From NCBI GenBank assembly GCA_963837465.1, contig CAWINB010000004.1, forward strand, positions 650,853 to 714,852: a stretch of 64,000 nucleotides of DNA, in the 5' to 3' direction. This document shows, in pieces, positions 1,155 to 28,194 of this stretch. Source of the stretch: Candidatus Doudnabacteria bacterium. GTDB lineage: Bacteria > Patescibacteriota > Doudnabacteria > UBA920. Each line of letters opens with the position of its first letter. The stretch's first letter is position 1. The notes beneath the pieces are model-generated. The model did no database searches and was not told the origin of the DNA. It worked only from the letters and a program-made list of their open reading frames with translations. A program made the translations under genes and the position numbers.

Positions 1155-2330
1155 ATGCAAATGCAACCAGGACAAACAGAAAAACTAAAAATCCTTATCC
1201 AGACTTCCGCTATACTTTCGCCTTCTGAACGCGCGGAATGGCTGGCGCTTTTGGATGTGATGAATGATAAGCAGGTTTTTGAATTGGAAAAGATTCTGAC
1301 AGTGGGTCAGCAGTCATCGGTTAAAGCCGCGGTTCCCGATTTCAGAACAAGCGGGGTTAATTTGCCGCCCCCATCGCTTAGGCAAGTGCCGCATCTGAGC
1401 CATATTTTAAATCTTCCCCAGCACTTAAACCCTTCGGGTGATGCGCTTGCCGCTCCTCCAACTGCTGAGCCTCCCAAAGTTGACAACAAGCCCAAATCGC
1501 GTTTTGGCGAAAAATTAAAATCTATTTTTGCCGAAAAAGAACTGCCGCCCGGCCATGGCGATATTTTGGATTTGCCGGCTCCGCCGACCAAGATTGCGAC
1601 TCCGGGTTCCGCCTTGCCTTCGCGGGATACCGGCGGCGTTGCCGTAGAGAAACCGTCGCTACCCCCGGTTGTGCCAAAGCCAAAAACACCCGCGGCGGCG
1701 CTAAACAATATTTCGGAACCTCCGGTTAAGTTAAATCACCCCGATGTTTTAAATACTACTTTACCCCCGGCAGTGCCTTTGGTGTTTTCCAAACATGCTG
1801 ATAATTCCAAGGTTAATCCCGCGGCAGCCGCCATATTGCAAAAAACGCCGGTTAAGCCTGTTCTGCCCGGGCTTGAGCCTCCGTCCGCCATACCCCCCGG
1901 CCAGAAAAATAATTTGCCGCCCAAAGCCCCGGCGCAAAAGCCCGCGCCCGCGCAGCCCGCGCCGCCGGACGTTTCGGCGCAAAAAAAGCAGACAACGCCG
2001 CAGCCGGCCGTTCACCTTCCGGATGCCAAGCTGGAGCTTGATAAGTTAAGCGACACGGCCTTGTTGGATGTAAAAAATTTGCGGATTTTGGATCCGGAAT
2101 TTTTGGTTAAGCAAATTAAAGCGCTGATTGGCCAAAACGGCTACCACGAGGTCATTTTCAACCTTGAAAAAAGCCCGCTTTACTTAAACTATATCAAGAC
2201 GGGCGCGGAAATTTTAAACGGCCGCGCCGATTTTGAAGCCTTAAGCCAAAAGCCGGAAGCGGAAAGTTATTTAAACAGGCAGGAGTTTGAACGGATGACG
2301 GATTTATTAAGGGCGATTCAAGCGGAGTAA
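1155..2330 (+). CDS. hypothetical proline-rich protein with a small folded C-terminal domain
   Basis: 391-aa ORF. The central region is PPxxP/PAPAQ-rich. No motif recognised. Confidence 0.4.
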   Translation: MQMQPGQTEKLKILIQTSAILSPSERAEWLALLDVMNDKQVFELEKILTVGQQSSVKAAVPDFRTSGVNLPPPSLRQVPHLSHILNLPQHLNPSGDALAAPPTAEPPKVDNKPKSRFGEKLKSIFAEKELPPGHGDILDLPAPPTKIATPGSALPSRDTGGVAVEKPSLPPVVPKPKTPAAALNNISEPPVKLNHPDVLNTTLPPAVPLVFSKHADNSKVNPAAAAILQKTPVKPVLPGLEPPSAIPPGQKNNLPPKAPAQKPAPAQPAPPDVSAQKKQTTPQPAVHLPDAKLELDKLSDTALLDVKNLRILDPEFLVKQIKALIGQNGYHEVIFNLEKSPLYLNYIKTGAEILNGRADFEALSQKPEAESYLNRQEFERMTDLLRAIQAE

Positions 2331-2334
2331 AGAT

Positions 2335-2365
2335 AATATCAAATTACAAATTTCAAATGACAAAT
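2335..2365. repeat. left arm of inverted repeat flanking the 4HB gene (CAAATTACAAATTTCAAAT motif)
   Basis: Reverse-complementary to 2731-2755 (ATTTGATATTTGTAATTTGAAATT). The same motif family recurs at 11382-11488. Confidence 0.6.
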
Positions 2366-2725
2366 GAAAAAAAATTTGACCTTGAAGAGCGGACTGCAAA
2401 ATTCGGGGAATCAACAATTGAGTTTGCGGGATTTATTCCACAAGGGCCTATTACCAACCCCTTAATTAACCAATATGTTAAATCCGGCACCTCAATCGGG
2501 GCAAATTATTGTGAAGCTGATTCAGCAGAATCAAGAAAAGACTTTGAGCACAAAATCGGTATTTGTAAAAAAGAGTCCAAAGAAACCCGCTACTGGTTGC
2601 GTATGATACCAAAAGCCAGACCTGAATTAGACCAAAAGGCCGCGATTCTTTGGAAAGAAGCTAATGAGCTATTATTGATATTTTCCGCGATTATCAAAAA
2701 GTCACGTATTAACGGATCAAAGTAA
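2357..2725 (+). CDS. four helix bundle protein (TIGR02436 / 23S rRNA intervening-sequence protein family)
   Basis: 122 aa with motifs IGANYCEA...SRKDFxHKIGICKKESKETRYWL typical of the family. Flanked by inverted repeats. Confidence 0.7.
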   Translation: MTNEKKFDLEERTAKFGESTIEFAGFIPQGPITNPLINQYVKSGTSIGANYCEADSAESRKDFEHKIGICKKESKETRYWLRMIPKARPELDQKAAILWKEANELLLIFSAIIKKSRINGSK

Positions 2726-2730
2726 TTTAG

Positions 2731-2755
2731 AATTTGATATTTGTAATTTGAAATT
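2731..2755. repeat. right arm of inverted repeat flanking the 4HB gene
   Basis: See left arm (2335-2365). Confidence 0.6.
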
Positions 2756-2781
2756 ATTAATTATGTTATAATTAAGTCGAT

Positions 2782-3237
2782 ATGCAATTTCCCGTGCCAC
2801 AATTTACGGATGTTGAGGATAAAATCATCGGCTCGCTTACGATTAAGCAGTTTGGGATTTTGTTTGGCGTCGGCATTGTCATTTTTTTGGGCTACTCTGT
2901 TTCCAAAAGCATTTTGGTGGCGATATTTTTGTTTTTGTTGTTCGGCGTGCCGGGTCTGGGCGTGGCCTTTGCCAAAATTAACGGCCGGCCCATATACAGC
3001 AGCATAGGCAATTTTATTAAGTTTTTTACCAGTCCCAAAGTCCTGATTTTTCACAAGGAAACTGTAAGTTCGTCGGCATCGACTGCCGCTTTTAAAGACG
3101 CCCAAATGGCCGCGGCCGAAGTAAAAGTCCAGGCTCCTGTTCCGGCCGAAAACACCCAAACGCATCTTAAACAAGTGGAGGAGCTCCTGAGAAAAACATC
3201 AAACCAGGAACAGGAAATGGCTAATAAAATCCGTTAG
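2782..3237 (+). CDS. PrgI-family protein (T4SS/conjugation-associated small membrane protein)
   Basis: N-terminus MQFPVPQFTDVEDKIIGSLTIKQF followed by two TM helices. Matches the PrgI family as found next to VirB4 in Gram-positive and CPR T4SS loci. Confidence 0.6.
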   Translation: MQFPVPQFTDVEDKIIGSLTIKQFGILFGVGIVIFLGYSVSKSILVAIFLFLLFGVPGLGVAFAKINGRPIYSSIGNFIKFFTSPKVLIFHKETVSSSASTAAFKDAQMAAAEVKVQAPVPAENTQTHLKQVEELLRKTSNQEQEMANKIR

Positions 3238-3270
3238 AATCAGGAGTTAGGAATTATGAGTTAGGGTCCT

Positions 3271-3317
3271 CCCTAACCCCTAACCCCTAACCCCTAACCC
3301 CTAACCCCTAACCCCCT
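3271..3317. repeat. tandem heptamer repeat (CCCCTAA)x~6.5, telomere-like, preceded by hairpin GTTAGGG-TCCT-CCCTAAC
   Basis: Direct reading of the sequence. Lies in the 83-bp gap between prgI-like and virB4-like genes. Confidence 0.95.
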
Positions 3318-4004
3318 CTGATGAAACTAGAAATGCAAAAGAAAAATAAGGCGCCCGGGAAAACCACCCAGAGTTTTTTGCGCTTAAGCGAAATTAAAAA
3401 CGATACCGTGGTGGTGGACGACGGCACTTTGCGCGCCATTATTTCCGTTTCCAGCACCAATTTTGATTTAAAAAGCCAGGATGAGCAGAATTCCATCATC
3501 TTTAACTTCCAGCGTTTTTTAAACTCCCTGGATTTTTCCATCCAGATTTTAATGCAGAGCCGCAAAATGGAAGTCGGGAGCTATATTGAAAAACTCCACC
3601 GTTTGGCGGAAAAACAGACTAACGAACTGCTTCGGGTGCAGACGGCCGAATATATAGAGTTCATTAGCCGCCTTATTGAGAATGCCAGCATTATGAACAA
3701 AAATTTTTACATTATTGTTCCGCTTGGCGAAAGCATTTTTCCCAACGCCGCGGGTTTGTTTAGCCGGCTTTTGGGCAACGGGAAATCAAAGGAGATTAGC
3801 CAGAAAATAGAGAACTTTGAAAAGGCCAAGGAAAAATTGGACACCAGGGTGGTGGCGTTAATGTCCAATTTGTCGGGAATAGGCATCCGCGGCCAGCGGC
3901 TTAAAACCGAGGAAATTATCCAGCTCTATTACAACTCCTATAATTTTGAAGAAGCTCCGCTGGTGGATCCTGGGCAGCTTAAAGATATAAAAATCTCCGA
4001 ATAG

Positions 4005-4487
4005 TTATCAGGATACTGATATACCGATATGAATACGAATGATACCAATAATACGGATTCTAACAACCAACGCGGTGAATTAATTCATGGGGATTTAACA
4101 TATAAAATTAACAGTGTATTATTTTCTACCCACAATGAACTTGGTCCTTACGTCAGGGAAAGCAATATGAAGATGTGGCAAAAAGAATATTTAAAGAAAA
4201 AGGCATTGGTTATGAACAACAGGTTTCTATCGGCGATTCAGGTAATATAGTAGACGGCATTATTGATAAAAAGGTTCTTATTGAATACAAGGCCAAAAGG
4301 ATATTAACTAAAGAAGATTATTATCAAACCCAAAGATACCTTCAGGAAACCGGTTTAAAACTCGCTATTTTAGTCAATTTTAGAGATAAATATATTAAAC
4401 CCAAACGGATTATAAAAATAGATAACTGGAAATATTAGAATCAGTATTATTGGTATCATCTGTATCTTATCCGTATATTAGCATCAT
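4005..4487. mobile_element. 483-bp insertion in virB4 carrying the GxxExxY gene, bounded by inverted words GATACCAATAATAC (about 4050) and GTATTATTGGTATC (about 4450)
   Basis: virB4 N- and C-terminal parts are contiguous in homologues. The inverted repeats were read directly. Related repeat words also occur at 52840-52958. Confidence 0.5.
4029..4438 (+). pseudogene. GxxExxY-family protein (PD-(D/E)XK-like) gene, frameshifted, inside the insertion that splits virB4
   Basis: ORF 4029-4250 (LTYKINSVLFSTHNELGPY) and ORF 4175-4438 (YEDVAKRIF...IEYKAKRILTKEDYYQTQRYLQETGLKLAILVNF) together reconstruct the family consensus. The frames differ near 4160-4175. Confidence 0.6.
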
Positions 4488-6359
4488 ATGTCCATATTCA
4501 GTAAAATCAACGAAGAAGAATTAAAGAAAAAGAAGGAGCAGGTCAGCGAGGCCGAGACCGAGCGGAACTTGAGTTCTTCTTTGGGGGATCTGGAAAAAAC
4601 CTATCGCGAAGGCTTGACTACCCTAAAGGATATTATCGCGCCTTCGGCCCTGAAGTTTGAAAGTTCCCACTTTGAAATTAACGGCAAGTTCGGCCGCAGT
4701 TTTTTCGTGCTGGCTTATCCGCGCTTTTTGTCCAGCAATTGGCTGTCGTTTATTATCCAGGCCGAGGGAGCTTTGGATTTGTCCATGTTTATTTATCCCA
4801 TTGATTCCGCCGACATCCTGAAAAAACTCAAGAGCAAAGTCGGTGAAATCGGCTCGCAAATGTCCATTAACCAGGAAAAAGGCATGGTGCGCGACCCGAT
4901 GCTGGAAACCGCTTACAAAGATGTGGAAAGTTTGCGCGACAACCTCATGCAGGGAACGGAAAAATATTTCCGTTTCGCGCTTTACTTTACCATTTACGCC
5001 AACGACTTAAAGGAGCTGGACAAGTTTTCCTCCACTTTGGAAAGTTCTTTGGGAGCCAAACTTATAGTAACCAAGCGCGCGCTTTTGCAAACGCAAAACG
5101 GCCTTAACTCCAGTCTGCCTTTGGGGCTGGATGAACTGGACGTGGCCAACAATATGAACACCGGCCCGCTGTCTTCCTGCTTTCCTTTCGTGTCTTCCGA
5201 TTTAACCAGCAATGACGGAATTTTATACGGCATCAACCGCCACAATAACAGCCTGATTTTGTTCGATCGCTTTGCCATGGAAAACGCCAATTCCGTGGTG
5301 TTTGCCAAGTCCGGGGCCGGTAAATCTTACGCCGTCAAACTGGAAGTTTTGCGCTCGCTTATGGTGGGTACGGACGTTATTATAGTGGACCCGGAAAACG
5401 AGTACCAGCATTTGGCTTCGGCCGTGGGCGGGACTTATTTGAGCGTGTCGCTGAATTCGGAATTCGCGCATCAACCCTTTTGATTTGCCCACGGGCCTTG
5501 AGGGCGAGGACAGCGCCGATATTTTACGCAGTTCCGTCATCAATCTTTTGGGCTTGCTTAGTCTGATGCTGGGAAAACTTGACCCTACGGAAGAAGCGCT
5601 TATGGACAAGGCCATTTGGCAAACCTATGCCAAAAAAGACATTACGCCGCAACTGGAAGATTTTAAAGGCATAGAGCCTCCGACCATGAACGATTTGATA
5701 GAAATTTTAAACGGCATGGTCGGCGCCGAAAGCCTGGCCCAGCGCTTGTTTAAGTTTACCCAGGGTACTTTTGGCGGCTTGTTAAACCAGCCGACCAACG
5801 TGGTGCTGAACAATCAACTTGTAGTATTTAGCATTCGCGATCTGGAAGAGGAACTGCGGCCGATTGCCATGTACATTATTTTAAATTATATTTGGAATAT
5901 TGTGCGTTCGGAATTAAAGCGCCGAATCCTGGCCGTGGACGAGGCCTGGATTTTAATGCAGCACGAAGATTCGGCCAGGTTTTTGTTCGGCATTGCCAAG
6001 CGCGCGCGCAAATATTACCTGGGCCTGACCACCATTACCCAGGACGTGGCCGATTTTCTGGCCAGCCCGTACGGCAAGCCTATTGTCACCAACTCATCCA
6101 TCCAAATGCTGCTTAAGCAGAGTCCGGCGGCCATTAACGTTATCGCGGAAACGTTTTTTTTAACCGAGGGCGAAAAATACCTGCTGCTGGAAAGCGAAGT
6201 CGGCGAAGGCATCTTTTTTGCCGGCCTCAAGCACGCCGCGATTAAAATTTACGCCTCCTACGTGGAAGACCAGATTATCACCACGGATCCCAAACAGTTG
6301 CTGGAGATTCAGGAGAGCCAGGAGAAGTTGAATTAAATTCATGGATATGACAGATGCCA

Positions 6360-6393
6360 CTGTTTTCACAGACGCGCGCGTCTGTGAAAACAG
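6360..6393. repeat. 34-nt perfect palindrome CTGTTTTCACAGACGCGC|GCGCGTCTGTGAAAACAG
   Basis: Direct reading. Lies between virB4 and the giant downstream gene. Confidence 0.9.
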
Positions 6394-6399
6394 GGTTGT

Positions 6400-9300
6400 T
6401 TGTCTGTCCGTGAATTATTTTTTATGGCGGAAGAAGATTCACAATCAAATATAGGCGTAGCCGATGGGCAAGAAGATGCTGTTAGGTCTGACAAACAACC
6501 AGCCGCGTCTAAAAAATTTATCCCATTGTCGGGTAAACCGCAAATTGTCAGATTGGGGGAAAGCTTTTTGGGCGGCCGGGTGTTAATTGTTAATGTTACA
6601 GTTGGCGGCGAGCCTCTTAATAATGGCATCAAGGTTTATAAAGATTCCGAGATTATTTTTACCGGGCGGGGTTTGGATAATTTAGATTTTTGGGAAGTCA
6701 GCCGGGAGGGGCGCGACTCTCTGCCTTTTACCCGTTTTAGAACAAAAAGTCCGTCCTTGGCTGTATTCAGCCCGCAAGACGCGCTTGGCGCTCTGGAAAA
6801 CGGCGAGAGTTTCGGTATTTCTTTTTTTTCCAGCAAGTACGGCGGGACGATGCGCACATTATCGGCGCTTTTTACTTACGAAACCGAGGAAGCGGACGAA
6901 GAAGCCGCCCGGAAGGCTAAAGCCGCGCGGGCGGCGGCGGAGGCGGCGCAGTCGGAGGGCGGAGGCGGAACTTTGGGTATTTCCCAGTTGATTGATGAAA
7001 GCATTGGCGGGGTGGCTAACGCGGTTGGGAGGGGGTTGCGGAGTTCGGCGAGGTCGGCGGTTTCCGGGACCGCAGGGGCTTACGCTGCCGGTTCTCAAAC
7101 TGTCAGCCAAAAATCAACCACGGAAAGTGCCGGAGGTGGAGGGTATGATGAGGAGACAGCCCAAGTCTCAACCGTAAACGTTCCTTCATCTACCATTGAA
7201 GCTTCTTCGGCGGGCACGCGGGTTGTAAGCCAGTCAGGAACTGTGGGCGGGTCACGCGGCGCGGAGATTACTTCTTCGGGTACGGTTTCAGGGTCGGGTG
7301 GCGGTACAATTTCTTCTTCGGGTACGGTTGAACCGCGAACTCGGGTAGGTGCAACTGCCCAGGTTAGTTCAGCGTCCGGCGGCGGACAAACTTTTGGCGG
7401 CGGGACTGTATCTGCCGGTGGTACGGCATCGGCTCAGGCATTTGTGGAAGCCAGGGTTTCGGGATCAGCTTCGGGACAAGCTTCCGGCGGCGGGCAAGTA
7501 TCGGCTTCTGTTTCAGGCGGGGGCGGAGTTTCATCCGGCGGCGGCGGAAATATTTCCGGACAGGCTTCGGTTCAAAGCGGCGGATCCCAAGCCGCATCGG
7601 CGCGGCCGGTTTCGCAAGGTCTCCAGGGAGGGGGAATATCGTCCGGGCGTCAACAGACAGCGCAGGCTCAGTCAGCCGGACAAAACGCCGGCCAGCAGGC
7701 ACAGACAGTGTCTCAAAATCAGGGCGGGCGGGCAGGATCAACAATTTCCGGCACAGCGCAAACAGCCGTTCCTTCTTTTTCATCAGGGACAAACTTAAAG
7801 ACACAAATAGGTGGCGCGGGCGCAACTTCTCCGGCTGTGCCTAAAAGCCGACCTTTGGCATCGGGAGCACCAGCCACGCCTTTGGGTAGTTTACCGCAAA
7901 ATTTTTCGGGTGCCTCGGGAACTTTTCAGCCCGGTTTAAATTTAGGCGCCAGCACACCCGTGGATGGCATCGCGGTAAACCCTCCCGCGGGCATGGAAGG
8001 CACTTTGAATAAGTTTTTTGAAAACCAGTCGGCTTTGGGCAGGTTAGATTTGGGGCCTGCCGAGAATCAAAATCATGAAATTCAGGGTCAGGAAAGTTCT
8101 TTGCCGGACGGGGAGAATGTAACAGAATCATCTGGATCTCCTGCCTCCGATGGCCAGCCGGAAATTTCAGGCTCCCCGGAAACCGAGCCGGATGTCGCGC
8201 CGCCTTTGTCCGAAGCGGGACTTCCGGGCGAAGGCGCGGGTGGCGAAGGTCAGGGTGGTCAGGAAGGCGCGGTCGATTCGGGGGATTCGGGGTCAGGAGC
8301 TCAATCAGGAAATTCGGAGCCGGGAGCGAAAGGGGGATTGAATGGTCAAACAGAAGGCGGCCAGGGAGGCCCGCCGGATAAAAATGCTCCGACCGGAACA
8401 AAGCCGCCGGGGCAAAATCCCGAAGCGACCGGGGCGCCTGACGCTGCCGTTCCGGGACAGCAGCCCGCCGCGGAGGGAGCCGCTCCGGATTCGGCCGAAG
8501 CAGACGCTTTAGCAGGACCTGAAGCAGACGGGGAAGCGGGAGCTGGCGCGGGGCCCGAGGGAGCCGCCGCGGCAGGGGCCGCGCTTTCCGGCGGCGGGCT
8601 TGATGCCGCCGCCGCGTTGGTCAACACGGAAGTAAATAGTCTTCTCACTGCCGCGGCTTTATGGGTCTGGGGATCGGGGATAGTCAGCTGCGGTTTTACC
8701 ATTGTGCTGGGGGCGCTAGTTGGGGATTTTCTCGTGCTGATGAAGAAGCGGTTGGCCAAAAGGGCTGTCAGCGCGCTTTCGGTAACCAGTTTAGGCGCTG
8801 GGATGAAACTGGCTTCATTTTCAAATGACCAACTGGCGGAAAAAATTAAGTTTAATCTGCCGGTTAAGGCCAATATCGCGGCGATGAACGCGGTAGTGGC
8901 AGTTATGATTTTTGGGGCAATATTTTTTTTCGGTGTGGTGTTATACGCCGGCTGTACCTGGCCGTTGGGCCAGTTCATCAGTTCGGCAACCAATTTTAAA
9001 GCCTCCATTATCGGCGGAATGGGTTATTCCAATGTTTGCCAGGATTTTTTATCGTTCCCCGCCGGACTCAGCGGCGCGGCGCAGGGAGCGACTACTGCCG
9101 GACCGGGTGCGCCATCTCCGAGTACTTCGTCTTCCAGGACTTGCAATGTTTTACCTTCCGGCAATGCCAGCGTGGCGCAATTATCTACTACCTGCTTTGG
9201 CGCTAACGCCTACACCGCCGCTGTTGTTGCGGCGCACGAAAGCGGCGGTACTCCGGGTATTGCCAGCGGTACGGATTATTGCCGTAATCCGGATGGTAGT

Positions 9301-9591
9301 CCGGTAATGATAAACGGTAAAATAGCCTCTGTCTCTTTTGGTTTGTTTCAAATTAATATTACCGCGCATCCTCTTGGAAATTTAAATTGCCCCACTGCTT
9401 TTAGCAACCTTTACACCGGCAGTAATAAGCAATGCCAGATTACAAACCCGAACCTTTACAACCAATGTGTTGCCGCGGCTGAAGACCCCCAGCAAAATAT
9501 CCAGGCCGCCTGCCAAATTTCCAACAATGGTACCAAATGGAGCGCTTGGCAGGCCGATATTAATGCCTGCAATATAAATCCAGGTTCATAA
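6400..9591 (+). CDS. giant secretion-system-associated membrane protein: Gly/Ser/Ala-rich low-complexity N-terminal half, TM helices, C-terminal lytic-transglycosylase-like (SLT/VirB1-like) domain
   Basis: 1063 aa. TM segments lie near residues 735-760 and 800-830. The C-terminus reads AHESGGTPGIASG...SVSFGLFQIN, cf. the SLT E-S...G-L-M-Q motif. The true start may be the ATG at 6424. Confidence 0.55.
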   Translation: MSVRELFFMAEEDSQSNIGVADGQEDAVRSDKQPAASKKFIPLSGKPQIVRLGESFLGGRVLIVNVTVGGEPLNNGIKVYKDSEIIFTGRGLDNLDFWEVSREGRDSLPFTRFRTKSPSLAVFSPQDALGALENGESFGISFFSSKYGGTMRTLSALFTYETEEADEEAARKAKAARAAAEAAQSEGGGGTLGISQLIDESIGGVANAVGRGLRSSARSAVSGTAGAYAAGSQTVSQKSTTESAGGGGYDEETAQVSTVNVPSSTIEASSAGTRVVSQSGTVGGSRGAEITSSGTVSGSGGGTISSSGTVEPRTRVGATAQVSSASGGGQTFGGGTVSAGGTASAQAFVEARVSGSASGQASGGGQVSASVSGGGGVSSGGGGNISGQASVQSGGSQAASARPVSQGLQGGGISSGRQQTAQAQSAGQNAGQQAQTVSQNQGGRAGSTISGTAQTAVPSFSSGTNLKTQIGGAGATSPAVPKSRPLASGAPATPLGSLPQNFSGASGTFQPGLNLGASTPVDGIAVNPPAGMEGTLNKFFENQSALGRLDLGPAENQNHEIQGQESSLPDGENVTESSGSPASDGQPEISGSPETEPDVAPPLSEAGLPGEGAGGEGQGGQEGAVDSGDSGSGAQSGNSEPGAKGGLNGQTEGGQGGPPDKNAPTGTKPPGQNPEATGAPDAAVPGQQPAAEGAAPDSAEADALAGPEADGEAGAGAGPEGAAAAGAALSGGGLDAAAALVNTEVNSLLTAAALWVWGSGIVSCGFTIVLGALVGDFLVLMKKRLAKRAVSALSVTSLGAGMKLASFSNDQLAEKIKFNLPVKANIAAMNAVVAVMIFGAIFFFGVVLYAGCTWPLGQFISSATNFKASIIGGMGYSNVCQDFLSFPAGLSGAAQGATTAGPGAPSPSTSSSRTCNVLPSGNASVAQLSTTCFGANAYTAAVVAAHESGGTPGIASGTDYCRNPDGSPVMINGKIASVSFGLFQINITAHPLGNLNCPTAFSNLYTGSNKQCQITNPNLYNQCVAAAEDPQQNIQAACQISNNGTKWSAWQADINACNINPGS

Positions 9592-9602
9592 TTTCAGCTT
9601 TT

Positions 9603-10079
9603 ATGAAAAAATCCTACAAATTTTTAATCGCGATAATAATTATCGGCTTGTTTGCTTACAGCCTGTACTTCGCGCTGACTTCCAAAAAACAGGTTGCCGC
9701 GCCGGTTGTGACCAGCCAAATAAGCGGGCCGACTTTAACCGTGCCTACGCAAAACGGGAGCAGTACCCAGGTTAGTGATATTACCAAAAATCCCCAGGCA
9801 GTTTTGGGCGACACCGATGTCATTGACCAGAACAGCGGCTACAGCATTGTTTATTTTAGCAAAGACCAAAGCTTTTTGATTACCATTCTTTCGGAGCCGG
9901 CGCAGGAAAACCGGGACGCGGCGGAACAGGAATTGCTCACCAAGCTGCAAGTCAGCCAATCCACGGCCTGCGATTTAAAAGTAGCGCTGACCGTGCCCGC
10001 GGATGTAGACGAAGCGTTATCCGGACAGGACTGGGGCTTAAGTTTTTGTCCCATAGGACAGACATTTCCGATTGAATAA
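9603..10079 (+). CDS. hypothetical secreted/membrane-anchored protein
   Basis: 158 aa with an N-terminal TM/signal sequence (KFLIAIIIIGLFAYSLYFAL). Confidence 0.4.
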   Translation: MKKSYKFLIAIIIIGLFAYSLYFALTSKKQVAAPVVTSQISGPTLTVPTQNGSSTQVSDITKNPQAVLGDTDVIDQNSGYSIVYFSKDQSFLITILSEPAQENRDAAEQELLTKLQVSQSTACDLKVALTVPADVDEALSGQDWGLSFCPIGQTFPIE

Positions 10080-10189
10080 GGTCGTAAAACCATCCCCTTG
10101 AAGGCTGCCTTCAAGGGGAATTTTGCCGCCTTGGATTTTTGTGCTATAATATTTTTATTAACGAAGTATTATCATCGAAATAAAAATAA

Positions 10190-11347
10190 ATGAATAAAAG
10201 AGCTATTGCCATTTTAGGCGTTATTTTTCTTCTTATTGTGGGCACTTTGGGTTTTTTGATTTACGCCAAATATTCGGGCGGCAAAGCAAAAACACCGGCT
10301 GCGCCGTCTTTATCCCAAACCGCTACTTCCACCAGCACGCCTAATTCAACTGCTTCCACCACACCGCCATCAACAAGTCAGGGCATCGGGCAACTGACAA
10401 CCGACCAGGTGGTTTCCCCCGCTTTGTTTTTTAACGACAGCGGCATAACTTATTTTGACAATCAGGGCAATTTGTACCAGTCAACCCTGCAAACCAGCAA
10501 CGGCCAGCTTGAGTTAACCGATAAAAAACAGCTGGATATTCCGGTTAAGGCCAACATTACCAAAATTTTATGGCCGCAAAAAGGCAACGATTTTATAGCG
10601 GAAATTACCGACCCGGCGACCCAAAAAATAAGCTGGAGTTATTTTAACAGCAACAGCGGGGCTTACACGGACTTGCCGCCTCAGGTTGAAAGCGTGGATT
10701 GGATGCCCGACGGAACCCGGATAGCCTACGTTTGGCTGGCTAACGGTAAAGCCAGTTTGAGCATGGGCAATCCCGACGCTACCAGCTACAAAACCCTGGC
10801 TCCCATGTGGGAAACAGACGACACTTTGAGCGTCTCCCCCGACGGCTCGCAGATTTTGTATTACGAAACCAACAATACGGGTTTGACCAACGCCATTAAC
10901 TCCGTCAGCATAGACGGCAAGGTTTGGAAAGGCTTGGTTAAAAGCGGCCAGAATTTTGGGGTTTTGTGGAGCCCGGACGGACAAAAATTTTTGTTTGGCA
11001 AAAAAGATCCGGCCACGCTGCAGTACCAGTTGTGGTATTACAACTTAACTTCCGGCGAAACGGAAAATCTCGGCCTGTTTACCACCGTGGATAAAGCAGT
11101 ATGGGCCGGCGACAGCAATATTATTTACGCCGCCGTGCCCAATTCAACTTCTCCGGCCCAGGGTAGTTTAACCAGCGATAGTTTTTACAGCCTTAACACT
11201 TCCACTTTGGCCAAGCAGCAGTACGGCGTTGGCGTAACTACGGCCATTGACGGCCAGGATTTGTTCTTAAACTCCAGCGGCAACGACTTATTTTTTAAGA
11301 ACGCGCAGGATGGGGGCCTTTACTATCTTGATTTAAGCCAGCAGTAG
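10190..11347 (+). CDS. membrane-anchored PD40/TolB-like beta-propeller repeat protein
   Basis: N-terminal TM. Repeats DWMPDGTRIAY, SVSPDGSQILYY and WSPDGQKFLF. An extended -10 (TGCTATAAT) lies about 40 bp upstream. Confidence 0.5.
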   Translation: MNKRAIAILGVIFLLIVGTLGFLIYAKYSGGKAKTPAAPSLSQTATSTSTPNSTASTTPPSTSQGIGQLTTDQVVSPALFFNDSGITYFDNQGNLYQSTLQTSNGQLELTDKKQLDIPVKANITKILWPQKGNDFIAEITDPATQKISWSYFNSNSGAYTDLPPQVESVDWMPDGTRIAYVWLANGKASLSMGNPDATSYKTLAPMWETDDTLSVSPDGSQILYYETNNTGLTNAINSVSIDGKVWKGLVKSGQNFGVLWSPDGQKFLFGKKDPATLQYQLWYYNLTSGETENLGLFTTVDKAVWAGDSNIIYAAVPNSTSPAQGSLTSDSFYSLNTSTLAKQQYGVGVTTAIDGQDLFLNSSGNDLFFKNAQDGGLYYLDLSQQ

Positions 11348-11381
11348 GTCTGGATTTTATATATTCAGGCAGCTCCAGGTT

Positions 11382-11488
11382 AATTTCAAATTTCCAATTA
11401 CAAATTTCAAATTAATGCCGAGTACCCAATTTTGAATTTGATTGTTGGGGTTTGGTTTGAAATTTGATATTTGCAATTTGGAATTTTT
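11382..11488. repeat. solo copy of the CAAATTTCAAAT inverted-repeat element (no internal gene)
   Basis: Arms AATTTCAAATTTCCAATTACAAATTTCAAATT and TTTGAAATTTGATATTTGCAATTTGGAATT are inverted. Same family as the flanks of the 4HB gene at 2357. Confidence 0.6.
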
Positions 11489-13338: not shown

Positions 13339-15393
13339 TCATTCAAAATGTACCACTTTATCTTTTATTTTGTCTTGTAGTAAAGGATATTTTTGTAAAT
13401 TTAGATCATCTTTTAACAGCTTTACAGCTTCCTGGCGGGCTGGTTCTATTAAGGCTGTGTAGCTTGGGTCAAAGTATTTAAAGTTCCAGCCGGCTTGGGC
13501 TTGGCCGTAGATTTCGCCGAAGCCGCGGGTTTTTAGGTCGGCTTCGGCCAGGGCAAAACCATCCTGGATTTTGGTAAAGGATGTTAGGCGGTTTATAGTG
13601 TCAGGGTTTTGGTTGTCTGTAAACAGAAAGCAAAAGCTTTGGTGCTCGGCCCGGCCCACGCGGCCGCGGAACTGGTGGAGCTGGGACAGGCCAAAACGGT
13701 CGGCGCCTTCAATCAACATAACCGAGGCGTTGGGTATGTCCACGCCTACTTCCACCACTGAGGTTGAAACTAAAATATTAATTTTATTGGCCAGGAAATC
13801 GGCCATGACGCTTTCTTTTTCTTTGGATTTCATCCGGCCGTGGAGCAGTCCGATGTTAAACCGCGGGAATATTTTTTTCAGGCTTTCCAGTTCTTTTTTG
13901 GCGGATTTGGTTTCCAATACCGCCGATTGCTCCACCAGCGGCGTAATCACAAAAGCCTGTCTGCCCAAAAGCAGTTGTTTTTTTACAAACTCGTAAGCCT
14001 GGCCGCGGTTTTGGGCCAGGACCAGTTTTGTCAGAATGGGTTTTCTGCCCACCGGCTTGGTTTTAATCTGGGAAATTTCCAGTTCGCCAAAAAAAGCCAG
14101 CTGCAGCGTGCGGGGTATGGGCGTGGCCGATAACGAAAGCAGGTGCGGGACTATTTTAGCGTTTTGCATTAACGCCGCCCGCTGCTCCACGCCAAAACGG
14201 TGCTGCTCGTCTATAATTACAAGAGCCGGATTTTTAAATTTGATATTTTTTTGCAGCAAAGCGTGGGTGCCTATGTAGATTCCCGGCATACCTTGGCTTA
14301 TGAGCATTTGCAATTTATCCTTGCTTAAGGATTCGTCGCCTATCTGGTTATAATTTTGAGTCAGCAGTATGATTTTAAGATTTTGACGGCCCTGGGAACC
14401 GGGCAAAAGTTTTTTTGCCACTTCAAAATGCTGGCGGGCCAAAATTTCCGTGGGCGCCAGAAAAACGGCCTGAAGATTCTGGCTGGCCGCTTCTAAAGAC
14501 GCGATTAAAGCCACCACGGTTTTGCCGCTGCCCACATCCCCCTGCAGCAGCCGGTTCATTGGCACGGGTTTTTCCAAATCCCGCAAAATATCCCAGGCCG
14601 CTTTTTTTTGCTCCACGGTAAGTTTAAAAGGCAGACTATCTACAAATTTTTTTACCAATACTTGGTCAAATTTTACAATATGGGATTTCTTGCGGGCCAG
14701 CTCCATTTTATGCCTTTGCGCCGCCAGCTGGCTTAAAAATATTTCTTCAAAAGCCAGACGTTTTTTCGCGGCCGCTAAAACCTGCTCGCTTTCCGGAAAG
14801 TGGGATTGGCGGATGGTTTGGCTTATATCCATCAGGCCTTGATTTTTTATTACGGCCGCGGGCAATTCGTCCGTCACTTCCCCGGCCAGCGGCAAAATAT
14901 TGGCTACCAGGTTGCGGAAAGTTTTTGGGTACAATCCTTGTTTGAGATGATACAGCGGGACCAAACGCGAGGTGTGCACCGGGAAATCGGCGGCTTTTTC
15001 GTAAATCGGGTTGGTAAGCTGCAGGGAAAAATTGTAATAGTCGGGCTGTCCGGCCAAAAATATTTCATCGCCGGTTTTTAAGCTTTGGGCCAGATACGGC
15101 TGGTTGAACCAGACCACCTTTAAAGATCCGGTTTCATCGCTGACTATGGCTTCAGCCAAAGACATCCGTCCCTTAAAGGAAAAACGGCTGCCGATGCTTT
15201 TAATTTGTACTTTCAGGCTGACGCTTTCGCCGGGCCTGATAGCTTTAATATTAACTACTTTGCTAAAATCCAAATAGCGGTAGGGGAAATACAGCAACAA
15301 ATCCCGGACCGTTAAAATTCCGAGTTTTTTTAAAGCCGCTAATTGCGGCTTTTGAAGTCTGGGCAGGTTTTCGATTGTGTCCGTAAGCTTCAT
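13339..15393 (-). CDS. recG: ATP-dependent DNA helicase RecG
   Basis: Motifs DVGSGKTVVAL, DEQHRFGV, SATPIPRTL and the wedge/OB region. The likely start is MKLTDTIENL at 15393; the ORF track extends to 15483, which would overlap the tRNA. Confidence 0.85.
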   Translation of the reverse strand: MKLTDTIENLPRLQKPQLAALKKLGILTVRDLLLYFPYRYLDFSKVVNIKAIRPGESVSLKVQIKSIGSRFSFKGRMSLAEAIVSDETGSLKVVWFNQPYLAQSLKTGDEIFLAGQPDYYNFSLQLTNPIYEKAADFPVHTSRLVPLYHLKQGLYPKTFRNLVANILPLAGEVTDELPAAVIKNQGLMDISQTIRQSHFPESEQVLAAAKKRLAFEEIFLSQLAAQRHKMELARKKSHIVKFDQVLVKKFVDSLPFKLTVEQKKAAWDILRDLEKPVPMNRLLQGDVGSGKTVVALIASLEAASQNLQAVFLAPTEILARQHFEVAKKLLPGSQGRQNLKIILLTQNYNQIGDESLSKDKLQMLISQGMPGIYIGTHALLQKNIKFKNPALVIIDEQHRFGVEQRAALMQNAKIVPHLLSLSATPIPRTLQLAFFGELEISQIKTKPVGRKPILTKLVLAQNRGQAYEFVKKQLLLGRQAFVITPLVEQSAVLETKSAKKELESLKKIFPRFNIGLLHGRMKSKEKESVMADFLANKINILVSTSVVEVGVDIPNASVMLIEGADRFGLSQLHQFRGRVGRAEHQSFCFLFTDNQNPDTINRLTSFTKIQDGFALAEADLKTRGFGEIYGQAQAGWNFKYFDPSYTALIEPARQEAVKLLKDDLNLQKYPLLQDKIKDKVVHFE

Positions 15394-15475
15394 AAATCCG
15401 TCAGTTTGACAGCCCTCCGCAGTCATCCGCTGCCGCGGATTCCGGCGCGGGACACGTTTTCGCGAAGCGAAAACG

Positions 15476-15552
15476 TGGTGCACCCGGCAGGGATCGAACC
15501 TGCGGCCTTTCCCTTCGGAGGGGAACGCTCTAATCCACTGAGCTACGGATGC
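15476..15552 (-). tRNA. tRNA-Arg (anticodon CCG)
   Basis: Cloverleaf folded by hand: acceptor GCATCCG/CGGGTGC, anticodon loop CTCCGAA, T-loop GGTTCGATCC and a 3' CCA. Confidence 0.85.
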
Positions 15553-23547: not shown

Positions 23548-24757
23548 ATACCGTTCGGAAATCCGTTGGTGAAATCAGATGTTCCTGTTAAGCTTAAGCG
23601 ATAAAACCAAGGTTTAACCAGTTAACTAAGAAAGGAATCTAGTCATGCCAAAAAAAACGTCGCCATGTTTGTCCACATTGCAGCAGTTTAAAAACAATTA
23701 AATTTGGTAAGGATGGCAAGAGTCATCGCTACCTCTGCCATTTTTGTAAGCGCACCTTTTCCATTTACCACGGCCAGGATTCTCACAACCTTTGGATAGA
23801 GCATATTGACGGCGTGGGCTTTAGACGCTTAGGCGATGAAAACACCCTGTCAGGGCCCCAGACCTACGCGCGCGTCATCACAGAGCTGGATCAGCTGCCA
23901 AAAAACGACTTTTTGACCAAAACCCTCTGTGATTTGGCCCACTGCCAGGGGATTTTAATCCTTGACGGCAAATACATCGCGGTTAAAGGCTTTGAGCGGA
24001 AGATTCCATTCCTGTTCGGCATTGATTACCTGACTCACGATATTTTACACGGAGAATTGTTCTTTTCTGAGGACGAAGCGGCTTTCTCCCAGTACTTTCA
24101 GAAACTAAAAGACCTGGGCTACAACCTTAAAATAGTTGTCGCCGATGACAGAGCAGGCATAAAACAGGCTCTAAACAAGGTCTTTCCCTACGCGCGGCTG
24201 CAGCTCTGCCATGTCCACTTCCTGGAAAACATCCGCGCTGTGCTTAGGGTTAAAACCGAGGAGCGCTACAGACACTTTTTTAATTCACTTAAGCTCCATG
24301 TGTTTACCGAAGGAGCGGATGAGGAAAAAATTGACGCCGGACTGGAGCATGTCTTAAGAAATCATGCCCAACACAGCCCCAAACTCCAGGATATTATCTG
24401 GGAAGTTAAGCGTAGACGCGAAGCCTTGTTTAATTACCTGAAAGTCAAAGACTGTCCCAACAACACCAACCTCATAGAACTTTTTAATTCCCACTTAAAC
24501 GGCCGCCTTAAAACCATCAAGGGTTTCCAGAGTTTTAAGTCGGCAAATCGCTGGCTTAACGCCTGGATGATTCGGCGCCGCAGCAAGACTTTTACCGATT
24601 GCGACAAAAAATTTAAATATTTAAACAAACACTGCTCCCTGGAATTTACCATTAAAAAACAGGCCCTGTGGCCTGAAACTTTAAAAACTTTAGGAATTAA
24701 CAAAATAAATTTTTTCGAAAAAAGCGATTACTAACAACGGATTCCCGAACGGTAACC
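23548..24757. mobile_element. IS1-family-like insertion sequence (about 1.2 kb) with imperfect terminal inverted repeats TACCGTTCGG(A/G)AATCCGTTG
   Basis: IRL 23548-23568 vs IRR 24735-24757 (19/20 match). Encodes one transposase with an InsA-like zinc ribbon and an InsB-like DDE domain. Confidence 0.65.
23645..24734 (+). CDS. IS1-family transposase (InsA-like Zn-ribbon fused to InsB-like DDE domain); frame broken in an A-run at 23650-23657
   Basis: Zinc ribbon CPHCSSLKTIKFGKDGKSHRYLCHFCKRTFS, cf. IS1 InsA ...[20 protein letters not shown]. DDE region ILDGKYIAVKG / IVVADDRAGIK / IELFNSHLNGRLKTIKGFQSF, cf. InsB MDEQWGYVGAK / WMTDGW / [22 protein letters not shown]. The ATG at 23645 is +1 out of frame with the body. 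The A-run is the only place they can be joined. Confidence 0.6.
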
Positions 24758-24943
24758 TCCAAGCGATCAAACGCCTCGAGCCAGGACTCGGAAACATGAC
24801 TTTGATTCATCATATTCTGTTACCTCCTTCCTCCAGTCAAATTCAATGCACTTTATATTAATAAACTATAACAAAAAAAGCAACCATAAATACTATGATG
24901 GTTGCTTTGTCCGCGTCCTTAGTATAGGAGTTTAGCCGACGAC

Positions 24944-25885
24944 TTATAAATTCATCTCCCGTAACCTCTTAACCCTGTCCTCAATCGGCGGGTGGGTGTT
25001 AAACAGGCTGGCGAACCAGCTGCGCGCGCCGTGGGCGCTGCCTTGTTGGCTGGAAGTGGCTTCCATCCTGTCCTGGTGGAATGGATTGACTATGTAAAAA
25101 TGCGCCGTGGCATTGTTGGCTTCGGCGAGCGGAGCGGAGTCATCTGAAATTTTTTCCAAAGCTGACGCAAGACCTTCGGGGTATCTTGTTAAAAGCGCGC
25201 CGCTGGCATCTGCCAAATATTCCCTTTGGCGGGAAACAGCCAGTTTTATTAAAGTGGCAATGAGCGGTGAAAGGATGGCCAAAAGAATACCAACCGCGAA
25301 AAGTATCATGCCTAAATTGCCATTATTGTTGTTATTGCTCCTGCGGCCGCCGAAAATGGAAAAGCGCAAAAACCAGTTGGACATAAGCGCTATCATGCCC
25401 ACCAAAACCACAACCAGGGTCATTAAACGGATATCGTAATTGCCAATGTGCGAAAGTTCGTGCGCGGTAACGCCTTCCAGTTCGGTTTTGTTCAATTTTT
25501 GCAGAATCCCGCTGGTGTAGCAAATGACCGCGTGCTTTGGGTCGCGGCCCGTGGCAAAGGCGTTGGGAGCGGAGTCTTGAATAATATAGATTTTTGGCGT
25601 AGGAATGCCCGCGGCAATGCACAAATTTTCCACTATGTTATAGAGCTGCTGGTTTGTCGCCCGGTCAACGGCCTGGGCTTTGGAAACCGCTAGCGTGATG
25701 GAGTCGGCAAAATAATAAGAGAATAATGCCGAGAAAACGCTAATAAACACAGCCAAATACAAAATCGCGTCGTCCTGATAAATTTGCGCGAACACCCAGC
25801 CAATAGCCGAAATTACCACTAAAAAGCTGAATATTAATATCCAGCTGTCGCGTTTATTTTTGGCGATAAAATCGTAGGTAAGCAT
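24944..25885 (-). CDS. htpX: zinc metalloprotease HtpX (M48)
   Basis: HELSH zinc motif (TAHELSHIGNYD) and a multi-TM topology. Confidence 0.8.
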   Translation of the reverse strand: MLTYDFIAKNKRDSWILIFSFLVVISAIGWVFAQIYQDDAILYLAVFISVFSALFSYYFADSITLAVSKAQAVDRATNQQLYNIVENLCIAAGIPTPKIYIIQDSAPNAFATGRDPKHAVICYTSGILQKLNKTELEGVTAHELSHIGNYDIRLMTLVVVLVGMIALMSNWFLRFSIFGGRRSNNNNNGNLGMILFAVGILLAILSPLIATLIKLAVSRQREYLADASGALLTRYPEGLASALEKISDDSAPLAEANNATAHFYIVNPFHQDRMEATSSQQGSAHGARSWFASLFNTHPPIEDRVKRLREMNL

Positions 25886-25886
25886 T

Positions 25887-25923
25887 GGGGGTAGGGTATA
25901 GGGGCTAGGGGGTTAGGGGTTAG
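25887..25923. repeat. G-rich flank GGGGGTAGGGTATAGGGGCTAGGGGGTTAGGGGTTAG (GGGGTTA units)
   Basis: Inverted complement of the C-rich flank 26308-26343 on the other side of the 4HB gene. Has at least 4 G-tracts. Confidence 0.85.
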
Positions 25924-25931
25924 AAAAGCAC

Positions 25932-26303
25932 CTAATTGATTGTAGTTGAGCGAAGTTTTTTGATTAGCGCTAGTAGCATTTTTTGTACTTGCAGAAGTAA
26001 TGACTTAGCGATCAAATAATCAAAATTCGGATACAATTTTTCCATCAGTAATATTTGTGTTTCAAGTTCTGCCGTCGATCCAAAAGCTATGCCCAAAAAT
26101 TGAATGAATTCTTTGGTATGGTTCCTCGCGTGGCCTTCTGCTATGTTGGAAGGTATAGAGATGGCAGCTCTTTGTGTTTGTGAACAAAGGCCGTAAAGTT
26201 CGTGTTTAGGAAATTGGCGGGTAATTTTATATATTTCTAATACTAAATCATTAGATTTTTGCCAAACAATTAAGTCTTTGTAGCTTAAGATCTGGTTTTG
26301 CAT
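25932..26303 (-). CDS. four helix bundle protein (TIGR02436 / 23S rRNA IVS protein family), second copy
   Basis: Motifs DLIVWQKS...FPKHELYGLCSQTQRAAISIPSNIAEGHAR...GSTAELETQ, canonical for the family. Confidence 0.8.
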   Translation of the reverse strand: MQNQILSYKDLIVWQKSNDLVLEIYKITRQFPKHELYGLCSQTQRAAISIPSNIAEGHARNHTKEFIQFLGIAFGSTAELETQILLMEKLYPNFDYLIAKSLLLQVQKMLLALIKKLRSTTIN

Positions 26304-26307
26304 ACTA

Positions 26308-26343
26308 TTCCCTAATCTCTATTCCCTAGCCCCTACCATTAGA
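26308..26343. repeat. C-rich flank ATTCCCTAATCTCTATTCCCTAGCCCCTACCATTAG
   Basis: Shares the core AGGGGCTAGGG/CCCTAGCCCCT in inverted orientation with 25887-25923. Confidence 0.8.
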
Positions 26344-26884
26344 ATTTCACCGCCACCGGCTGCGCCTCCGGACCGCTTTCGTCTATCCCAAAGAATTGCT
26401 TAGCCGTAAAACCAAACATGGAAGCGAACAGGTTGGTAGGGAAGACCTGGAGTTTGGTGTTGTAGTCGCGGGCGGTGCCGTTGTAGAAGCGGCGGGCGGC
26501 CTGGATTTTGTCTTCGGTATCGGTTAAATCGCTTTGCAGCTGCAAAAAGTTTTGGTTGGCTTTTAAGTCCGGATAGGCTTCGGCCACGGCAAACAAACTT
26601 TTTAGCGTGCCGGAAAGCGCGTTTTCCTTAGCCAGTTTATCATCAAGCGATCCTGCTCCCATAGCCGCGGTGCGGGCAGCCGTGACTTTTTCAAAAACTC
26701 CGGATTCATGAGCGGCGTAGCCCTGCACGGTACTGACCAAATTGGGGATTAAATCATACCGACGCTTTAACTGAACGTCTATATCGCTCCACGCTTCATC
26801 CACGCGGTTTTTGGAACGGACCAGACCGTTAAATAGCAGGACGGCAATAATCACAATTGCCAAAATTATCCACAAAAATACCAT
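26339..26884 (-). CDS. lemA: LemA family protein
   Basis: N-terminal TM followed by the LemA domain (RYDLIPNLV...). Confidence 0.75.
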   Translation of the reverse strand: MVFLWIILAIVIIAVLLFNGLVRSKNRVDEAWSDIDVQLKRRYDLIPNLVSTVQGYAAHESGVFEKVTAARTAAMGAGSLDDKLAKENALSGTLKSLFAVAEAYPDLKANQNFLQLQSDLTDTEDKIQAARRFYNGTARDYNTKLQVFPTNLFASMFGFTAKQFFGIDESGPEAQPVAVKF

Positions 26885-26987
26885 ATATTTAAGCTTTTCG
26901 TTTAATATTTAAGCTTTTCCATATTATACCATATATACGCAAAATATCATAAAATTGTTGCAAACCCAGGTTTAACCCGTGGCCGCC

Positions 26988-27016
26988 TTGACAAGTTTGG
27001 GGTGATGATATATAAT
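26988..27016 (+). promoter_or_regulatory. sigma70-like promoter TTGACA-17-TATAAT for the yerC-like gene
   Basis: Exact consensus hexamers with 17-nt spacing. Confidence 0.6.
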
Positions 27017-27017
27017 C

Positions 27018-27056
27018 GCTTTAGTTAACTAAAGCGCTTTAGTATGCTAAAGCGAC
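27018..27056. promoter_or_regulatory. two tandem palindromic operator-like sites, CGCTTTAGTTAACTAAAGCG and CTTTAGTATGCTAAAG
   Basis: Perfect dyads between the -10 and the start codon of a TrpR-like regulator gene. A related half-site GCTTTAGTGCACTAGC lies at about 27417-27436. Confidence 0.55.
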
Positions 27057-27065
27057 AACAATTAA

Positions 27066-27404
27066 ATGCTTATGAATAAATCCAACAAATGGGATAACAA
27101 AAAAACGGATGCTTTGGTAAAAACTGTTTTGGCTTTGAAGACCAAAAAAGAAGCCAAAAAGTTTTTGCGCGACCTGTTAACCGAAGACGAAATCCTGGAA
27201 TTCGGCAACCGCTGGCAAGCCGCGCAAATGTTAAGCAAAAAATTGTCCTACACTACCATATCCGGCAAAACCGGCCTGTCCAGCGCCACCATAGCCCGCA
27301 TTTCCAATTGGTTAAAAAACGGCCGCGGCGGATACAAATTAATGCTCAAACGCCTAGCTTTACATCATCACAACTCTCTTCCTGTTGGGAAAGGGTTGCG
27401 TTGA
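27066..27404 (+). CDS. YerC/YecD (TrpR-like) family DNA-binding protein
   Basis: LLTEDEILEFGNRWQAAQMLSKKLSYTTISGKTGLSSATIARISNWLKNG matches the family consensus. Confidence 0.7.
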   Translation: MLMNKSNKWDNKKTDALVKTVLALKTKKEAKKFLRDLLTEDEILEFGNRWQAAQMLSKKLSYTTISGKTGLSSATIARISNWLKNGRGGYKLMLKRLALHHHNSLPVGKGLR

Positions 27405-27575
27405 TAATATTTCGTAAGCTTTAGTGCACTAGCTGCAAGTCCGCCATAGCGCTTTGGCGAAGGCGGATACGCTAGCGTAAAAGGACTTGAAAATATCAAC
27501 TTAACCCGTTCCCAAGAGGAGCGGGTTTTTTGTTTGTCCCAAAACGAGCAAAATTTACAATCAAAAGGATGGAAT

Positions 27576-28193
27576 ATGAGTGATTTTTACCATTGTAGAA
27601 GGGCCCCGTACTTGGAAGAGATTGTTGAGGTTGAAGAAGCGGAACCAAAAAGGATGGTACGTAGATTGCAGATTGGCGTAATGGGAAGCGCTGCTGACCT
27701 CGGATATTCCGAAGCAGTAGCAAAATTGGCCGAAGATATCGGCCGCGAAGTGGCTTTGGCCGGATGCACTTTAGTCTTTGGCGCGGAGAAAGATTGTGAT
27801 TCGCTTTCTACCGCGGCCGGACGAGGCGCTCGAAGTGTCGGCGGCCTGACTGTCGGCGTGACTTATGGCAAGGGGCTGCAAGTTCACGACGATGCTGACG
27901 TTATTATCGCCACCGGCATGGAGCGCGGCGGCGGACGTGAGTTTGTGCTGGCGATTTCCTGCGATGCCATTATCGCCATTTCCGGAGGCAGCGGCACCTG
28001 CAACGAAATCGTTGTGGCTTACCAGGCCAGCATTCCGGTTATCGGAATTGTCGGCTGCGGCGGCTGGAGCGAAGAAATGGCTGGCCGGGCGTTTGATGCT
28101 CGGCGGCAGCACCTAGCGGTTAAGCCAGCTCGCACGGCCAAGGAAGCTGTAATGTTGGCGGTAGAAGCTGCACGTACAGGAGGGGAGCACTGA
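27576..28193 (+). CDS. TIGR00725/LOG-like (SLOG superfamily) Rossmann-fold protein
   Basis: GVMGSAADLGY...GCTLVFGAEKD...ISGGSGTCNEIVVAYQASIPVIGIVGCGGW matches the LOG/TIGR00725 pattern. SD AAAAGGATGG is present. The ORF track extends to 27534. Confidence 0.55.
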   Translation: MSDFYHCRRAPYLEEIVEVEEAEPKRMVRRLQIGVMGSAADLGYSEAVAKLAEDIGREVALAGCTLVFGAEKDCDSLSTAAGRGARSVGGLTVGVTYGKGLQVHDDADVIIATGMERGGGREFVLAISCDAIIAISGGSGTCNEIVVAYQASIPVIGIVGCGGWSEEMAGRAFDARRQHLAVKPARTAKEAVMLAVEAARTGGEH

Positions 28194-28194
28194 C

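Follow-up and report, generated by a model that had tools for sequence, protein, structure and literature searches.

The closest described system is the Patescibacteria MPF-FATA-like T4SS reported in 2025, which has the same architecture as the locus analysed here (PMC12102498). In Ca. Southlakia epibionticum ML1 the T4SS cluster was essential, and epibiotic growth required T4SS genes that include PrgI, the VirB4-associated TrsD homologue and the lysozyme homologues downstream (PMC12102498). The locus lies in a 64,000-nt stretch of a Candidatus Doudnabacteria bacterium, called the window below, and all coordinates are those of the window. Gene set and order (PrgI, TrsD-like, VirB4, lysozyme-like SLT_3) are common to both systems; only in the window is the virB4 frame broken by one base. 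Ca. Southlakia belongs to Saccharimonadia and the organism here to Doudnabacteria, so essentiality is extrapolated from another class. The partner genes were annotated as follows.

2782..3237, + strand: PrgI (VirB3-like) gene, intact.
3321..4004, + strand: TrsD/TraC-like gene, homologous to the VirB4 N-terminal domain; 227 aa, separate, intact.
6400..9591, + strand: gene downstream of virB4, intact in the window; product of 1063 aa, with a lysozyme-like SLT_3 domain at its C-terminus.

The T4SS partners expected of a VirB4 (VirB3/PrgI, TrsD, cell-wall hydrolase) were thus found around virB4. Genes for a PD40 beta-propeller protein and then RadA follow 3' of the 1063-aa gene, and the locus is chromosomal. 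The order of the conserved locus genes was kept in the five closest related loci inspected. Over 81 loci, identity reached a maximum of 92.8% (median 77.5%) for VirB4 and 79% (median 59%) for RadA; no other gene of the locus comes near VirB4 in sequence conservation. On the NCBIfam model NF045971 (752 positions), the TrsD-like gene matched positions 9-136 and the ATPase gene positions 176-728. By this division of the model, the VirB4 N-terminal domain is a separate 227-aa gene in this lineage, in agreement with PMC12102498.

The reconstructed protein was matched by Pfam PF19044 at 86.6 bits (cut-off 25.8), by AAA_10, and by NF045971 (CD1110-type VirB4) at 357.2 bits (cut-off 325). PDB 4AG5 was matched to residues 237-598 with E = 7e-44. 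On these profile and structure matches the repaired protein is a VirB4/TraC-type T4SS ATPase (Patescibacteria, MPF-FATA-like). Its homologues showed up to 93% identity, and the named ones were labelled Candidatus Doudnabacteria or Patescibacteria. Close homologues were mostly 615 aa long and none was below 613. The uninterrupted frame of about 615 aa expected of the VirB4/TraC family was absent from the window sequence, where virB4 is split at a short repeat into ORFs 4488-5483 and 5485-6336. The features of the split gene are these.

4488..5483, + strand: virB4 N-terminal part, 331 aa; Walker A inside; stop TGA at 5481-5483.
5304-5327, + strand: Walker A, AKSGAGKS, 0 frame.
5453..5459, + strand: heptamer copy 1, GAATTCG; last base of a Leu codon plus AAT TCG (Asn-Ser), the normal family codons.
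5455..6336, + strand: virB4 C-terminal part, +1 frame; open from after TGA 5452-5454 to the stop at 6334-6336.
5460..5466, + strand: heptamer copy 2, GAATTCG; GAA TCG (Glu-Ser of the family X-S dipeptide) plus one extra T.
5463..5464, + strand: TT dinucleotide, one T being the putative +1 insertion; contig L084 ends at 5463.
5467-5484, + strand: RINPFD motif, in the +1 frame.
5475..5484, + strand: CCC TTT TGA T, holding the stop codon of the 0 frame directly after UUU (UUU_UGA).
5485, + strand: first start codon of the +1 frame, TTG, one base past the 0-frame stop.
5926-5949, + strand: Walker B, ILAVDEAW, +1 frame.

The sequence at 5453-5466 is GAATTCGGAATTCG, a perfect 7+7 tandem of GAATTCG (5453-5459 and 5460-5466), exactly as the original prediction had described it. 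The 331-aa N-terminal ORF ends in ...SLNSEFAHQPF (...GGTYLSVSLNSEFAHQPF*), and the +1 frame is translated as ...IRNSRINPFDLPTG... and IRNSRINPFDLPTGLEGE.... Reading of the frames bore out the predicted frameshift just 5' of the invariant R-I-N-P-F-D. Deletion of one 7-mer also fused the two ORFs in frame, as had been proposed, giving 613 aa with zero stops. Because Walker A and Walker B are in different frames, a full ATPase cannot be encoded from the sequence as written; to this extent the claimed inactivation of the ATPase holds, and the recent slipped-strand 7-bp event to which it had been ascribed is not supported. Perfect 7+7 tandems numbered 15 in the window and 4.7 +/- 2.0 in dinucleotide-preserving shuffles. 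The repeat per se is not beyond chance and is notable only for coinciding with the frame break. The tandem array at 5453-5466 lies below the TRF score threshold, no inverted repeat was found near the repeat site, and the antisense ORFs 5223-5615, 4994-5308 and 5625-5813 gave no Pfam match.

The lesion is, with high probability, a +1 insertion of a T, and neither a 7-bp duplication nor a switch. The window codons are CTG AAT TCG GAA TTC GCG CAT. Deletion of one T (5463 or 5464) gives CTG AAT TCG GAA TCG CGC ATC, which is translated as SLNSESRINPFDL in a protein of 615 aa and reads SLNS-ES-RINPFDL; deletion of one 7-mer leaves SLNS-RINPFDL. The alleles were represented by the strings GGAATTCGCGC (TT), GGAATCGCGC (T), and CTGAATTCGCGCATC and CTGAATTCGCGC (single 7-mer).

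The length of the loop before the motif separates these models. The stretch from GG to NPFD was exactly 19 residues, SLN[SA]-X-X-R[IV]NPFD, in 80/80 related genomic loci matched there, with the consensus G-G-x-[YF]-...-SLN[SA]-X-X-R-[IV]-NPFD at identical spacing. Two residues stood between SLN[SA] and R[IV]NPF in 207/207 homologues compared, and the zero-residue form in none. All seven close homologues that were read carry SLNS-[A/P/N/D]-S-RINPFDL. The very tripeptide restored by removing one T was seen in relatives: SESRINPFD in 5/80 loci, and SES for example in L012, L018, L021, L048, L061 and P0362. In L018 and L021 the Glu-Ser-Arg site is encoded by GAA TCG CG[G/C].

A true 7-bp tandem duplication of GAATTCG, from an ancestor with SLNS-RINPFDL and 613 aa, is accordingly very improbable. 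It would account directly for the perfect repeat, and dropping one copy reopens the frame; the earlier loss of 6 bp between the TCG codons that it presupposes is mechanistically possible. The site would nevertheless have had to change twice, by an unseen 6-bp deletion in a length-invariant loop and then by the duplication, by way of an intermediate without the two residues present in all 80 loci and all 207 homologues. Such a single-copy ancestral state, with SLN[SA] abutting R[IV]NPF, was found in none of these loci or homologues. Copy 2 minus one T is, moreover, exactly the family Glu-Ser. Comparison with sister genomes, a check named with the original prediction, showed a repeat or frameshift at the site in 0/80 relatives.

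The resemblance to a duplication is explained by the insertion itself. The ancestral ...G AAT TCG|GAA TCG would have been a 6-of-7 near-repeat (GAATTCG/GAA-TCG), pre-existing because Asn-Ser and then Glu-Ser use one and the same Ser codon. The extra T completes the perfect 7+7, and the lesion therefore looks like a duplication. Since only 5 of the 5,548 possible single-base insertions in virB4 yield a perfect 7+7, the insertion looks templated by the near-repeat. A nascent strand ending in ...GAAT may have misaligned on the previous GAATTCG copy. The extra T shifts the frame by +1, and translation halts six codons on at TGA 5481-5483.

Independent assemblies were taken from Logan, whose contigs derive from a k=31 de Bruijn graph with single-occurrence k-mers dropped and conservative simplification (PMC12424806). 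By these rules the end of a Logan contig marks an unresolved branch or a dead end. Exact products of the neighbouring genes were recorded on short Logan contigs (runs ERR10755945 and ERR10755938) and on one contig of 0.2-1 Mb. The latter is probably the 868,218-bp contig on which the 283-aa product from start 5485 is found. No mention of the run accessions was found in the literature. The contigs were aligned to the window as follows.

1880-3300: L082, no difference there; its first base (1879) is T, against C in the window.
3286-5463: L084 (run ERR10755945), 100% identical over 2,178 bases.
9168-11409: L083, one 1-nt gap.
24727-28510: L085, one SNP, at 25099.
24727-26351: L086, SNP at 25099 as in L085.

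L084 ends in ...GAATTCGGAAT (...GCTGAATTCGGAAT). Its last position, 5463, is the branch point between T and TT and lies beyond 5459/5460, where one-copy and two-copy alleles would diverge. L084 thus crosses the 7-mer boundary and halts at the T/TT position, yet never reaches 5466, which again speaks against a 7-bp duplication. The chance of a contig of about 2 kb ending within +/-1 base of the site is roughly 0.002. In L083, at about 9374 of the window (position ~207 of the contig), CCTCTGG stands against CCTCTTGG in the window, again T versus TT, 3.9 kb downstream of the virB4 site. Relatives share the frame of the window across ~9374, and the frameshift sits in L083; with the relatives siding with the window, this discrepancy indicates that 1-nt indel noise exists in these data. 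With the 1-nt deletion at ~9374, the 1063-aa protein would have its lysozyme-like SLT_3 domain cut short.

Over 11.2 kb, comparison of window and Logan sequences gave two base substitutions and a single 1-nt indel, besides the contig break at the suspect T. At 1879 the window has C and Logan T, a change of Pro to Leu in a 391-aa protein. At 25099 the window has A and both runs have G, a change of Phe to Leu in an M48 peptidase. These two differences indicate that the runs hold a closely related, non-identical strain. The contigs of both runs stop at one and the same base, 24727, beside the palindrome TTTTTTCGAAAAAA.

The 283-aa product was recorded on the 868,218-bp contig only. Look-up by the 331-aa N-terminal product found no contig carrying an exact match, and contig look-up by the 283-aa C-terminal product (window 5485-6336 with TTG; P0361 with Met) returned none. 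Twenty candidate products, comprising both reconstructions, alternative starts and the partial products expected to the right of the site, were matched exactly against the protein collection. The 283-aa product alone was present; neither the 613-aa nor the 615-aa reconstruction was in the collection. The control, the 325-aa partial product of L084, was also absent from it, so these absences carry no weight. A gapped DNA pattern across the site had no match in JGI metagenome contigs. Protein searches for a fragment from the same strain, in which the junction segment and the C-terminal 299 aa served as separate queries, gave nothing above 93% identity.

Whether the TT is a true state of the population was weighed on the same data. 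The balance tips slightly towards an error in the 868-kb source contig (consensus, basecalling or polishing), or towards a minority allele taken into its consensus. TT would then not be the true state of the dominant population, and the functional allele would read ...AAT TCG GAA TCG CGC... (615 aa). The gene is under strong constraint: dN/dS against the closest relatives was 0.03-0.06 (~0.04) in both halves of virB4, with dS saturated. No second lesion was found in virB4, with no other stop in 614 codons and no decay in either half. Low dN/dS together with the lack of a second lesion means that the frameshift is either extremely recent or not real. A fixed or dominant null allele is also unlikely a priori, the T4SS being essential in the one Patescibacteria species tested (PMC12102498). 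The ratio of indels to substitutions, in constrained genes, looks more like technical noise than natural variation.

The other reading, somewhat doubtful but with real weight, is that TT is genuine: a very recent +1 insertion that gave this Doudnabacteria population a null virB4 allele, either fixed or segregating. Mechanistically, the misaligned nascent strand would have copied one more T and then realigned, and the perfect direct repeat is the signature of such templated misalignment; a repeat-making insertion on a near-repeat is the pattern of polymerase misalignment and so favours a real mutation. Long homopolymers are the usual place of long-read consensus errors, and the extra base lies outside one, a point against the consensus error. 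The other long ORFs and adjacent ORF pairs of the window that were checked with Pfam were intact, so assembly errors appear rare here. No broken gene besides a GxxExxY pseudogene was found in the window, so the rate of assembly indel errors is not high. The GxxExxY gene is identically frameshifted in L084, so true pseudogenes occur at the locus. The end of L084 at 5463 is equally compatible with a T/TT polymorphism and, the Logan runs being a slightly different strain, may reflect strain variation rather than error. The operon has a further frameshift allele in a Logan contig, at 9374. Against a genuine TT stand the position of virB4 as the most conserved gene of the locus (dN/dS ~0.04), the essentiality of T4SS genes in Ca. 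Southlakia (PMC12102498), the lack of secondary decay in either half, and the count of two frameshift-type differences (9374 indel, 5463 break) to two substitutions in 11 kb, which resembles technical noise.

It is improbable that TT is real and belongs to a set of null alleles that arose independently and segregate within the T4SS operon in this natural population. Such alleles would comprise +T in virB4 here and -T at ~9374 in the lysozyme-like gene (ERR10755945), and residual VirB4 might then arise by +1 slippage at UUU_UGA. If it were true, it would mean a recurrent, selected or tolerated switch-off of a machine thought essential for the epibiotic lifestyle. A null virB4 in a free-living population of Patescibacteria, if real, would bear on the dispensability of their T4SS beyond the single Saccharimonadia system in culture.

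In other assemblies, many short fragments of VirB4 (130-260 aa; P0124, P0134, P0137, P0160, P0171, P0194, P0202, P0223) were seen on contigs as long as 36 kb to 950 kb, and split virB4 genes seem to recur in Patescibacteria MAGs.

Several other features of the window were recorded. The GxxExxY / PD-(D/E)XK (PDDEXK_3) gene at 4029-4438, between the TrsD-like gene and virB4, is read in frame 1 as ...LTYKINSVLFSTHNELGP... and then in frame 3 as ...KQYEDVAKRIFKEKGIGYEQQ...; L053 has a GxxExxY homologue at the corresponding place. A perfect hairpin with a 15-bp stem (CTGTTTTCACAGACG CGCG CGTCTGTGAAAACAG) lies at 6360-6393, between virB4 (24 nt past its stop) and the gene of the 1063-aa protein. In form it resembles a terminator, though the T tract after it is weak. 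A perfect heptamer array, (CCCTAAC) x6.4, was found at 3271-3315 just 5' of the ATG (3321) of the TrsD-like gene, and (GGGGTTA) x5.1 on the + strand at 25887-25923 just 5' of the minus-strand M48 peptidase gene 24944-25885. The two arrays have a common unit and a common orientation relative to their genes, and L082 and L084 both break within the first. They are a better candidate for length variation than the GAATTCG site.

AT-rich heptamer arrays of ~3.6-4.6 units each (CAAATGA, AATTTGA, AATTTCA, TTTGAAA) were found at 2335-2371, 2727-2762, 11382-11413 and 11456-11486. These arrays lie on either side of the 23S_rRNA_IVP-family gene (2357-2725) and of the radA start (11442), and L083 ends inside one of them. 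A tRNA-Arg (CCG) gene at 15476-15552 shares 8 nt with the RecG ORF (13339-15483, minus strand) when the most upstream GTG of that ORF is taken as its start; the real recG start is probably further downstream. The ORF pairs 27534/28195, 45798/46601 and 50081/50883 were rejected as frameshifts, being distinct intact genes. EcoRI-type restriction-modification or methylation was rejected also, since GAATTC shows no avoidance (15 sites; 17.4 expected).

The site was compared with known systems in which a broken frame has a function. That it is itself functional, as a phase switch, a programmed +1 frameshift at CCC UUU UGA U or a reinitiation at TTG 5485, is barely credible. In its favour, the unit of 7 nt is not divisible by 3, UUU_U before a stop would permit perfect tRNA-Phe +1 re-pairing to give 615 aa (...SLNSEFAHQPFDLPTG...), and TTG 5485 is at hand one base beyond the stop; the repeat, the frameshift and UUU_UGA are, however, absent at this position in relatives, 80/80 of which are in frame. 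Contingency loci undergo slipped-strand phase variation at short repeat tracts, as in genes of Neisseria, Haemophilus and Helicobacter. The virB4 site is likewise a short non-multiple-of-three tandem within the coding region of a surface-machinery gene. Contingency loci have long tracts, whereas here there are merely two units, no copy-number variation was seen among the 80 relatives or in L084, and the predicted ON state was never observed. The sole copy change that restores the frame leads to that 613-aa form, and three copies would leave the frame broken. The reversible phase switch offered in the original prediction was not upheld for these reasons.

Programmed +1 frameshifting of the prfB type takes place at CUU UGA C with an upstream Shine-Dalgarno. 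The likeness is that a P-site codon can re-pair +1 beside UGA (UUU UGA U, 5478-5484), so the slippery codon by a stop is present. The upstream GAATTCGCGCATCAACCC contains no Shine-Dalgarno-like or GGAGG-like stimulator, the site is not conserved in the 80 relatives, and the +1-recoded product would read EFAHQPFD and not the invariant ESRINPFD, with F-A-H-Q in place of S-R-I-N. Programmed +1 frameshifting at 5475-5484 was rejected on these three grounds. The peptides diagnostic of +1 read-through at the site would be EFAHQPFDLPTG and SLNSEFAHQPFDLPTGLEGEDSADILR. An ATPase made in two pieces would be cut in the RecA-like core between Walker A and Walker B, a split that is, to our knowledge, unprecedented in the VirB4 family.

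Among solved structures, the VirB4 C-terminal ATPase domain of Thermoanaerobacter pseudethanolicus (4AG5/4AG6) and TrwK of R388 (7O41) conserve Walker A and Walker B. The NP[FL] motif is kept as far as KINPL in 4AG5 and FNPF in TrwK. 4AG5 was matched over the ATPase domain only, and its loop preceding the motif has one residue fewer; within the Doudnabacteria group the length of that loop does not vary.

The lesion is thus an ordinary frameshift in a known system, whether error or recent null allele, and the gene is best annotated as a virB4 that probably carries a single-base frameshift rather than as phase-variable. A perfect short tandem at a frame break can stem from a one-base insertion into a near-repeat, and caution is due where such tandems are met; the family-wide loop length is what separates insertion from duplication models. 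As in other single-base frameshifts of MAGs (residual indel errors, young pseudogenes), an isolated +1 indel lies in a pristine, constrained gene, and an independent assembly of related reads disagrees at the exact base. Two features set it apart from the typical case: there is no long homopolymer at the site, and the extra base makes a 7+7 repeat perfect.
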